A stretch of DNA of 16,403 nt from Escherichia coli (GCF_048403405.1 NZ_CP183130.1), one strand, 5' to 3'; positions 9,461 to 9,970 are shown, numbered from the stretch's first letter. Notes: generated by a model from the letters alone, not told the origin. Translations and numbers: made by a program.

Positions 9461-9970
9461 ATGAGTAAATCAGGTGCAGAAAAAATTCAATTCATCCTGA
9501 ATAATCATGAACAGGCATACAGACGCCTGAAGCCTGTATATACTTTTTTAGAACTGGCATCTTGGATTTCGGTTGTTCTGCTGATTATATACCTATCAGG
9601 CAAGAATCACGTGCTTACAGCAGCTTTTCTCTGCTTTGCATGGACAGCATTCTGGGTTCTTTTCCTTTTACATTATTTCCCAAAAGTTTTCTCTATTCTC
9701 GATCGTCAGAGTCTGCTCAACCTCATGGAGGCCACCAAAGACTCACCAGATGTAAAGCAGGAGCTGCTTAACCGCCTTTTTTCCGGAAAAAGAATGACCG
9801 GGCGGGATGAAATGGATATCTGCCGTCTTCTGAGAAAAAATGAAGAAGAAAAAATCCGTCAGAGTGAACTGAATATCATCAGGAATTTTATTGATGAACA
9901 GCAGTTAACGAATAGTGATATTCCGAAGAAAAGTACGGTCCCAAATGAAGATAAAAAAGGCATAAGATGA
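9461..9970 (+). CDS. Hypothetical small inner-membrane protein (two predicted TM helices, charged C-terminal tail)
   Basis: 169-aa ORF with RBS; hydrophobic segments LASWISVVLLIIYLSG and LTAAFLCFAWTAFWVLFLLHYF; K/E-rich C-terminus. No family recognised. Confidence 0.55.
   Translation: MSKSGAEKIQFILNNHEQAYRRLKPVYTFLELASWISVVLLIIYLSGKNHVLTAAFLCFAWTAFWVLFLLHYFPKVFSILDRQSLLNLMEATKDSPDVKQELLNRLFSGKRMTGRDEMDICRLLRKNEEEKIRQSELNIIRNFIDEQQLTNSDIPKKSTVPNEDKKGIR

Follow-up and report, generated by a model that had tools for sequence, protein, structure and literature searches.

What is the function of the small membrane protein that IncI plasmids encode between a FinO-domain gene and their replicon, and to which process of the plasmid does it belong? 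For ESBL, AmpC and mcr-1 resistance genes, IncI, IncF and IncI2 plasmids are among the main vehicles, and their backbones are incompletely catalogued as long as this protein, YafA, present in about 3300 PLSDB plasmids, has no Pfam family. We analysed a stretch of 16,403 nucleotides from Escherichia coli (NZ_CP183130.1), called hereafter the window. A preliminary description had reported there an ORF next to a FinO-like gene, encoding two hydrophobic helices and a charged, coiled-coil-like tail, and had suggested a role in entry exclusion, immunity or stability, such as small membrane proteins of plasmid backbones often have.

Results

The yafA gene and its surroundings

The window was found to be 99.1% identical over 11.4 kb to NZ_CP023362.1, a plasmid typed as IncI-gamma/K1 and conjugative (MOBP, MPF_I). 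A PK-repZ pseudoknot upstream of repZ, the single RNA family returned by an Rfam scan of the window, confirms that the replicon is of the IncI/B/K type. The ORF under study is intact, as had been described: it runs from an ATG to a TGA over 169 codons and is the sole long ORF at this place (Table 1). By chance, 0.02–0.35 ORFs of such length would be expected over the entire window, according to the base composition that is assumed. The coding sequence is 100% identical to that of WP_012783913.1, a "hypothetical protein" of NZ_CP023362.1, and the UniRef cluster of the product is named "Protein YafA". From these matches, the ORF is assigned as yafA of an IncI-complex conjugative plasmid. Because identical or related copies are present across thousands of plasmids, with a dN/dS below 1, we consider yafA to be a genuine gene.

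Table 1. Positions of yafA, of its predicted protein segments and of neighbouring features in the window
Feature	Position	Strand	Basis
Sigma-70-like promoter match TTTACT-16-TATTAT with TG, upstream of fopA	8743..8770	+	consensus scan
fopA (yafB), FinO-domain gene directly 5' of yafA	8802..9405	+	Pfam ProQ match
Shine-Dalgarno-like GGGAAGAG, 7 nt 5' of the yafA ATG	9446..9453	+	sequence reading; putative function
yafA coding sequence, 169 aa and stop	9461..9970	+	ORF list, sequence, UniRef name
YafA N-terminal segment, predicted cytoplasmic, aa 1-25	9461..9535	+	family conservation; helical in AlphaFold2 model
YafA membrane hairpin: TM1 ~aa 26-46, 4-residue loop, TM2 ~aa 51-73	9536..9679	+	hydropathy
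YafA conserved core, predicted cytoplasmic, aa 77-124	9689..9832	+	conservation, pLDDT, omega
YafA long charged helix, aa 114-152	9800..9916	+	AlphaFold2 helix
YafA low-confidence tail, aa 153-169, IncI-complex members only	9917..9967	+	pLDDT ~50
Degenerate 3' remnant of an 88-aa ORF, ~41 5' codons deleted	9965..10070	+	translation comparison
PK-repZ pseudoknot upstream of repZ (Rfam, 189 bits)	12084-12232	-	

The gene itself was already catalogued as YafA, hypothetical protein, with hundreds of identical copies. R64, ColIb-P9 (pCol1B9) and the IncI1 plasmid pESBL carry the same gene at the same site between fopA and repZ. Relative to the IncI1 plasmids with YafA, the coding sequence of the window shows no difference, whereas its fopA has one additional nucleotide and only a remnant is left of the 88-aa ORF that follows yafA. 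Other IncI plasmids have this ORF intact, overlapping the yafA stop codon (the intact counterpart is at 3995-4261 of locus L018). In the window, translation of the remnant reads YEINNQASRGWRGFILRLIGVNL*DKRTVFTRRL*, in which asterisks are in-frame stops, and yafA is whole.

The FinO-like neighbour was correctly recognised, the gene 5' of yafA carrying a ProQ/FinO domain (Pfam, E 8e-11). Its product, FopA, is a FinO-domain RNA chaperone that speeds Inc-repZ RNA pairing (PMC7491321). The two genes are on the same strand, 55 nt apart, with no terminator-like site between them, and we infer that they are co-transcribed. The sigma-70-like match upstream of fopA is a possible promoter for a fopA-yafA transcript, the count of promoter-like sites not exceeding that of shuffled controls.

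In related plasmids fopA is an intact gene of 603 bp. In the window, as seen in the alignment, an extra A at 8965 (GAAAAC versus GAAAC in related plasmids) splits it into 8802..9104 and 9064..9405. It is one of five small indels, four of them of 1 nt and the fifth of 2 nt, by which the window differs from NZ_CP023362.1 in yagA, fopA, repZ or their vicinity. The others are 7231 +A, 8295 +C and 8418 -CG, in the yagA region, and 11041 +G, at the 3' end of repZ; yagA has 362 codons in the window versus 448 aa in NZ_CP023362.1, and the C-terminus of RepZ is altered as well. Such a set suggests sequencing errors or recent pseudogenisation, and since errors may be involved, the disruption of fopA is not to be over-interpreted.

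Predicted structure of YafA

Kyte-Doolittle windows placed two hydrophobic stretches at about residues 26-46 and 51-73, in agreement with the two helices first noticed. They are separated by a 4-residue loop, SGKN, and the first is directly preceded by RRLK. An AlphaFold2 model, computed from a 22-sequence family alignment, contains helices at residues 5-47, 51-72, 82-91, 96-107 and 114-152, with a mean pLDDT of 79; the value is about 90 for residues 81-140, and the last 17 residues are disordered. YafA is thus predicted to be a hairpin protein of the inner membrane, with its N-terminus and C-terminal two thirds in the cytoplasm and about 4 residues exposed to the periplasm. This in/in topology is deduced from the even number of TM helices, the lack of a signal peptide, the basic residues before TM1 and the large charged C-terminal domain.

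Conservation is uneven along the protein. The N-terminal segment has the family consensus M.KS..EKI.FIL..HE...RR, with a mean column conservation of 0.56. For the hairpin, a hydrophobic span of some 40-75 residues (a length set by the hydropathy threshold used) was present in 18 of 18 family members, and the conservation of its sequence was just 0.35. The core, with a pLDDT of about 89-91, has a mean column conservation of 0.67 and the consensus L.R..LL.LM..TKD.PDV.QELL.RL.SGK..TGRDE.DI, which includes the motif RLLSGK.LTGRDE; residues R105, L106, S108, G109, D116 and I120 are invariant in the family alignments A3 and A5. The tail that had been described as charged and coiled-coil-like is indeed charged and helical, but the coiled-coil reading was rejected, no convincing heptad pattern being present: in no register do more than 4 of 11 hydrophobic residues fall at positions a and d. 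The final segment, residues 153-169, is missing from the IncF, IncI2 and VirB-type homologs.

A YafA/YfiA family on conjugative plasmids

Searches of curated collections upheld the initial statement that no family could be assigned. Against Pfam, the best match of YafA was Rota_NSP3, at 15 bits for a cutoff of 25, and NCBIfam gave none. Across YafA and its family members, none of Pfam, NCBIfam, PHROGs and PADLOC returned anything consistent. PDB sequence and profile searches with YafA gave no match below E=0.04, and a fold search gave none that was significant. A profile search of a 5.8-billion-protein set returned just "hypothetical protein" and "Protein YafA" entries, all from Enterobacteriaceae, and a phage collection contained no match to the family. 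The published literature was searched for yafA, yfiA, the traR-traC interval and IncX regulators, and no functional study of YafA was found; an IncX3 deletion screen (PMC11880322) could not be linked to any YafA-family member.

Relatives of YafA were nevertheless recovered. When 1.84 billion representative sequences were searched exhaustively with phmmer, 76 matches were returned, among which about a dozen full-length relatives of 145-170 aa (23-46% identity, E 1e-61 to 1e-7), and tblastn also recovered IncF and IncI2 members. We refer to them as the YafA/YfiA family, which is uncurated and is defined here by the alignments A2, A3 and A5. YafA has full-length significant similarity to the other members and shares their architecture, made of an N-terminal helix, a hydrophobic span of two-TM length and a core with R-L-x-S-G...T-x-x-D...I. 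It is also carried, like them, on a conjugative element of Enterobacteriaceae, as judged from the IncI-type repZ and from the nearest records, which are conjugative. Between plasmid groups, members that are just 21-27% identical still have this architecture and the near-invariant motif. Many gene calls of the family are truncated or fused in databases.

By tblastn, the family was detected in 3327 of 72,556 PLSDB plasmids (4.6%), all from Enterobacteriaceae, and 3203 of these 3327 (96%) are predicted to be conjugative. As far as searched, the family appears confined to conjugative plasmids and to one possibly integrated element of Enterobacteriaceae, a copy located near TraG_N and integrase genes on a 377-kb contig. 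The enrichment in conjugative plasmids may simply reflect the backbones that carry the gene.

The IncF homolog is named yfiA in OZ026762.1, and the R100 transfer region contains "yfiABC" (PMC5052281), of which yfiA is the first ORF. YfiA of R100-type IncF plasmids has the same architecture as YafA, with 37-43% identity and E values down to 1e-25. Neither protein is annotated, and each diverges more rapidly than the products of adjacent genes. Unlike yafA, yfiA is located inside the F-type pilus-assembly operon, overlaps traR, has neither a FinO gene nor a replicon as neighbour, and its product is devoid of the IncI-specific tail. Five distinct IncF-type alleles all start 8 nt before the traR stop codon, upstream of traC. 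A family homolog, WP_000549562.1, is also present in pSLT; in the classic F plasmid, by contrast, the traR-traC interval is devoid of ORFs and yfiA is missing.

In IncF plasmids, the stretch from traR to traC seems to act as a hotspot of variable small ORFs. One IncF-type plasmid contig, L013, contains there two tandem YafA-family paralogs, 39% identical (5528-6004 and 6001-6471). Further small ORFs, unannotated and without a Pfam match, were seen in the interval (L017 4303-4650, L013 6468-6842 and L023 5471-5860), and at least two of the products, that of L017 (115 aa) and that of L013 (124 aa), look hydrophobic when their translations are read. Pfam gave nothing for eight small ORFs neighbouring YafA-family genes at related loci.

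Three plasmid lineages of the VirB type have a YafA-family gene just upstream of a gene for a VirB1-like lytic transglycosylase, preceded in two of the three by a NusG-like ActX gene. For the third lineage, CP101957.1, membership was established by hhalign (probability 98.9%). A tblastn search of PLSDB with the VirB-type member P0119 gave no match; as the P0119 backbone has no close relative there, these loci, which are rare in PLSDB, are best labelled "IncX-like, untyped" rather than IncX. On IncI2 plasmids the homolog adjoins hicAB, and mobC and the relaxase gene are about 3.3 kb away from it. Finally, in the IncI complex, yafA is beside the replicon, between fopA (yafB) and repZ, outside the tra genes. 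In most lineages the family gene is found within a type IV secretion operon or at its start.

Divergence of yafA and yfiA

The DNA of the window was compared with that of an IncI plasmid carrying the other major allele. Identity was 93-98% in fopA and 47-85% from position 9421 to about 9860; over the final 100 bp of yafA and past its end it was again 88-95%, as it was between IncI alleles in the segment encoding residues 153-169. Such a profile marks the body of yafA as an island of divergence within near-identical IncI backbones. The dS was 0.42 for yafA versus 0.10 for fopA, and in one pair of IncI plasmids protein identity was 99% for RepA, 92% for FopA and 64% for YafA. Similarly, among TraV, TraR, YfiA and TraC of five IncF plasmids, YfiA was the most divergent protein in 10 of 10 pairs, with omega values of 0.37-0.91 versus 0.07-0.22 for the neighbour genes.

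Over the whole yafA/yfiA gene, omega ranged from 0.3 to 0.9, and within yafA it was about 0.3 on the core and 0.83 on the hairpin relative to allele B; these are Nei-Gojobori estimates without a recombination model, from a sample of 4 IncI and 5 IncF loci. They indicate that the core is under purifying selection and that the hairpin evolves close to neutrality between the major alleles. Positive selection is not claimed, as no well-sampled region had an omega above 1. Mosaic alleles of yafA exist, P0007 being one example. Two accounts of the island fit the data: recombination may have reshuffled alleles of old origin, or constraint on the anchor segment may be relaxed.

Discussion

A proposed accessory of conjugation

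Function is best considered in the light of a TnSeq study of the IncI1 plasmid pESBL, in which YafA, encoded by a 510-bp gene, was classed as non-essential with a probability of 0.96, the alternative classes being essential for maintenance and conditionally essential for transfer; mutagenised cells were donors only, fopA was non-essential too, and insertions in neighbours were tolerated (PMC4288162). The explanation that we tentatively prefer, rating it at a little under an even chance, is that YafA is a dispensable accessory of the conjugative lifestyle, acting from the cytoplasmic face of the inner membrane via its conserved three-helix domain. The hairpin would serve mainly as a membrane anchor, and the three-helix unit with its RLLSGK.LTGRDE motif would be the working part. 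Most plausibly, it would bind at the cytoplasmic face a component of the transfer machinery or of the host, and would so modulate conjugation-linked physiology, DNA transfer being possible without it. Our confidence in any specific binding partner is much lower than in this general role.

The proportion of carriers predicted to be conjugative, the lack of phage matches, the type IV secretion operon contexts, the purifying selection on the core and the dispensability seen in TnSeq and in the F plasmid all argue for an accessory role. Against it, a role in conjugation that is invisible to TnSeq is so far indistinguishable from no role, and yafA of the IncI complex adjoins the replicon, away from the tra genes.

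F-like tra operons encode short membrane proteins, such as TraP and TrbD, which are dispensable for DNA transfer in standard matings. YafA-type proteins resemble them in being short, membrane-located, encoded in transfer operons and dispensable. No homology was detected between the two groups, and the neighbours have Pfam families of their own, whereas YafA has none. Unlike the small proteins of the F operon, the YafA family spans F-type, VirB-type and I-type plasmids. Should the accessory role hold, little would follow from it beyond the addition of another dispensable membrane protein to those associated with tra genes.

The three groups of genes, IncI yafA, IncF yfiA and the ORFs upstream of virB1, constitute one family and could receive a single annotation label. 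No curated family or paper was found that covers this equivalence, the restriction to conjugative elements or the behaviour as a divergence island. These are modest additions to annotation, hypothesis-generating in kind, and do not amount to a new kind of system.

Possible conflict between elements

A different possibility, which we regard as unlikely, is that YafA and YfiA are factors of inter-element conflict or self-recognition, a membrane-tethered weapon or shield. They could inhibit the transfer of co-resident rival plasmids, prevent infection by pilus-specific phages or supplement the existing exclusion with a further layer, with divergent alleles kept by selection. Fertility inhibition through the targeting of coupling proteins is known for PifC, FipA and Osa. 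Among the rivals of the accessory role, conflict best accounts for the divergence island and the paralogs. The excess of dS and of protein divergence in yafA over fopA and RepA, the rank of YfiA as most divergent in every IncF pair with an omega above that of its neighbours, the tandem copies in L013 and mosaic alleles such as P0007 are all in its favour, as is the dispensability of yafA for transfer of its own plasmid (PMC4288162).

However, omega exceeds 1 in no well-sampled region, and it is chiefly the membrane anchor that varies, a segment for which constraint can be expected to be relaxed, whereas conservation is highest in the domain likely to mediate interactions. Moreover, no consistent match to defence or phage families was obtained, and the comparisons rest on few plasmids. 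A stronger version, to which we give a slightly smaller chance, would make YafA/YfiA a previously unrecognised class of conflict determinants, in which a conserved cytoplasmic effector is tethered by a fast-diversifying hairpin. If such proteins interfered with the transfer machinery of rivals or with pilus-dependent phages, this would keep ancient, recombining alleles in circulation, with tandem paralogs now and then, and the dispensability of YafA for its own transfer would be explained, together with its embedding in unrelated type IV secretion operons. The divergent yafA locus is a possible typing marker, or else a pointer to conflict among plasmids or with phages.

A possible partner of FopA

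Genomic position at first suggests another role, in which YafA would act together with FopA in replication or in the control of copy number, for instance by tethering or modulating the RNA chaperone at the membrane. The close, uninterrupted arrangement of fopA and yafA, the conservation of the pair across IncI-complex plasmids and the control of Inc/repZ pairing by FopA (PMC7491321) are consistent with it. Outside the IncI complex, too, genes of the family follow a gene-expression factor, TraR or, in two of the three VirB-type lineages, ActX.

We nevertheless judge this partnership improbable. The preliminary description had proposed to examine co-occurrence with the FinO-like gene, and adjacency of the two turned out to be confined to the IncI complex. 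On IncI2 plasmids a ProQ-domain gene is present 3.5-5 kb from the homolog, in a separate transcription unit, and no FinO-type gene was found in the VirB-type flanks (2.8-6 kb on each side) or in the 12-kb IncF loci around the homolog; adjacency is therefore not a property of the family. Furthermore, FopA, TraR and ActX have unrelated folds while the YafA core is conserved, the YafA allele switches (64%) while FopA (92%) and RepA (99%) stay the same, and TnSeq revealed no maintenance phenotype (PMC4288162). The family view thus moves the question from that of a partner of FopA to that of an accessory of conjugation.

A possible role in entry exclusion or immunity

The initial suggestion that YafA might act in entry exclusion, immunity or stability received no support. 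As an exclusion or immunity protein of the recipient inner membrane, a role to which we attach a low probability, YafA would join TraS of F and ExcA of IncI1; like it, these are small, reside in the inner membrane, are encoded by conjugative plasmids and have divergent alleles. Exclusion determinants of the Eex type in SXT/R391 elements are reportedly cytoplasmic, and if so, the minimal periplasmic loop of YafA is compatible with such a role.

The traS and excA genes adjoin those of their type IV secretion targets, traG and traY, whereas yafA is located between fopA and repZ, and the family profile has no similarity to either protein (hhalign probability of 0.6% versus F TraS and 0.2% versus IncI1 ExcA). 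With about 4 residues outside, exposure of YafA to the periplasm is near zero. IncI plasmids already encode ExcA next to TraY, and excA is found next to traY in a plasmid closely related to that of the window; F-like plasmids have TraS and TraT. The YafA core is, in addition, common to IncI, IncF, IncI2 and VirB-type plasmids, which have unrelated mating-pair systems, contrary to what would be expected of an exclusion determinant specific to one system. The TnSeq classification likewise gives the suggested roles in exclusion, immunity or stability no support (PMC4288162).

Improbable readings: absence of function, or a toxin

It is very improbable that yafA has no function or is in decay, and that it persists in the backbone by hitch-hiking. 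The high omega of the whole gene, its dispensability (PMC4288162), the absence of a homolog from F and the many truncated or fused gene calls could be read in that sense. They are opposed by the architecture and near-invariant motif kept at such low identity across plasmid groups, by the omega of the core and by the 8-nt overlap with traR, conserved in five divergent IncF alleles.

A post-segregational-killing toxin or other stability determinant is the least credible candidate, with a minimal probability: YafA is a small hydrophobic protein of a plasmid backbone, and the variable region nearby often contains toxin-antitoxin modules (yacAB, relE/parE in related IncI loci), but no antitoxin-like partner is found beside yafA, whose neighbours are fopA and the remnant ORF, no cognate antitoxin gene or antisense-RNA signature was detected in the window (where Rfam gave just PK-repZ), the 169-aa length and conserved soluble domain are unlike those of type I toxins, the IncF and VirB-type homologs are embedded in long tra operons, and insertions in yafA and its neighbours are tolerated, with no asymmetry of essentiality (PMC4288162).

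Additional observations on the window

Strong GC-rich, terminator-like hairpins are present between yafA and repZ, at 10517-10545 (+) and 10256-10270 (-). Around this interval, 11 terminator-like sites were observed in a 2.6-kb region, versus 2.7 expected, and the region probably includes the replication origin. Besides the indels, 76 substitutions separate the window from NZ_CP023362.1; nearly all are in a 700-bp stretch of repZ (11156-11866) with identical flanks, which looks like a recombination tract. A 24-bp difference in repeat number was also found at 6603, where the window has three fewer TATCTTGT units than NZ_CP023362.1; this repeat is located just downstream of a parA-like gene pair.
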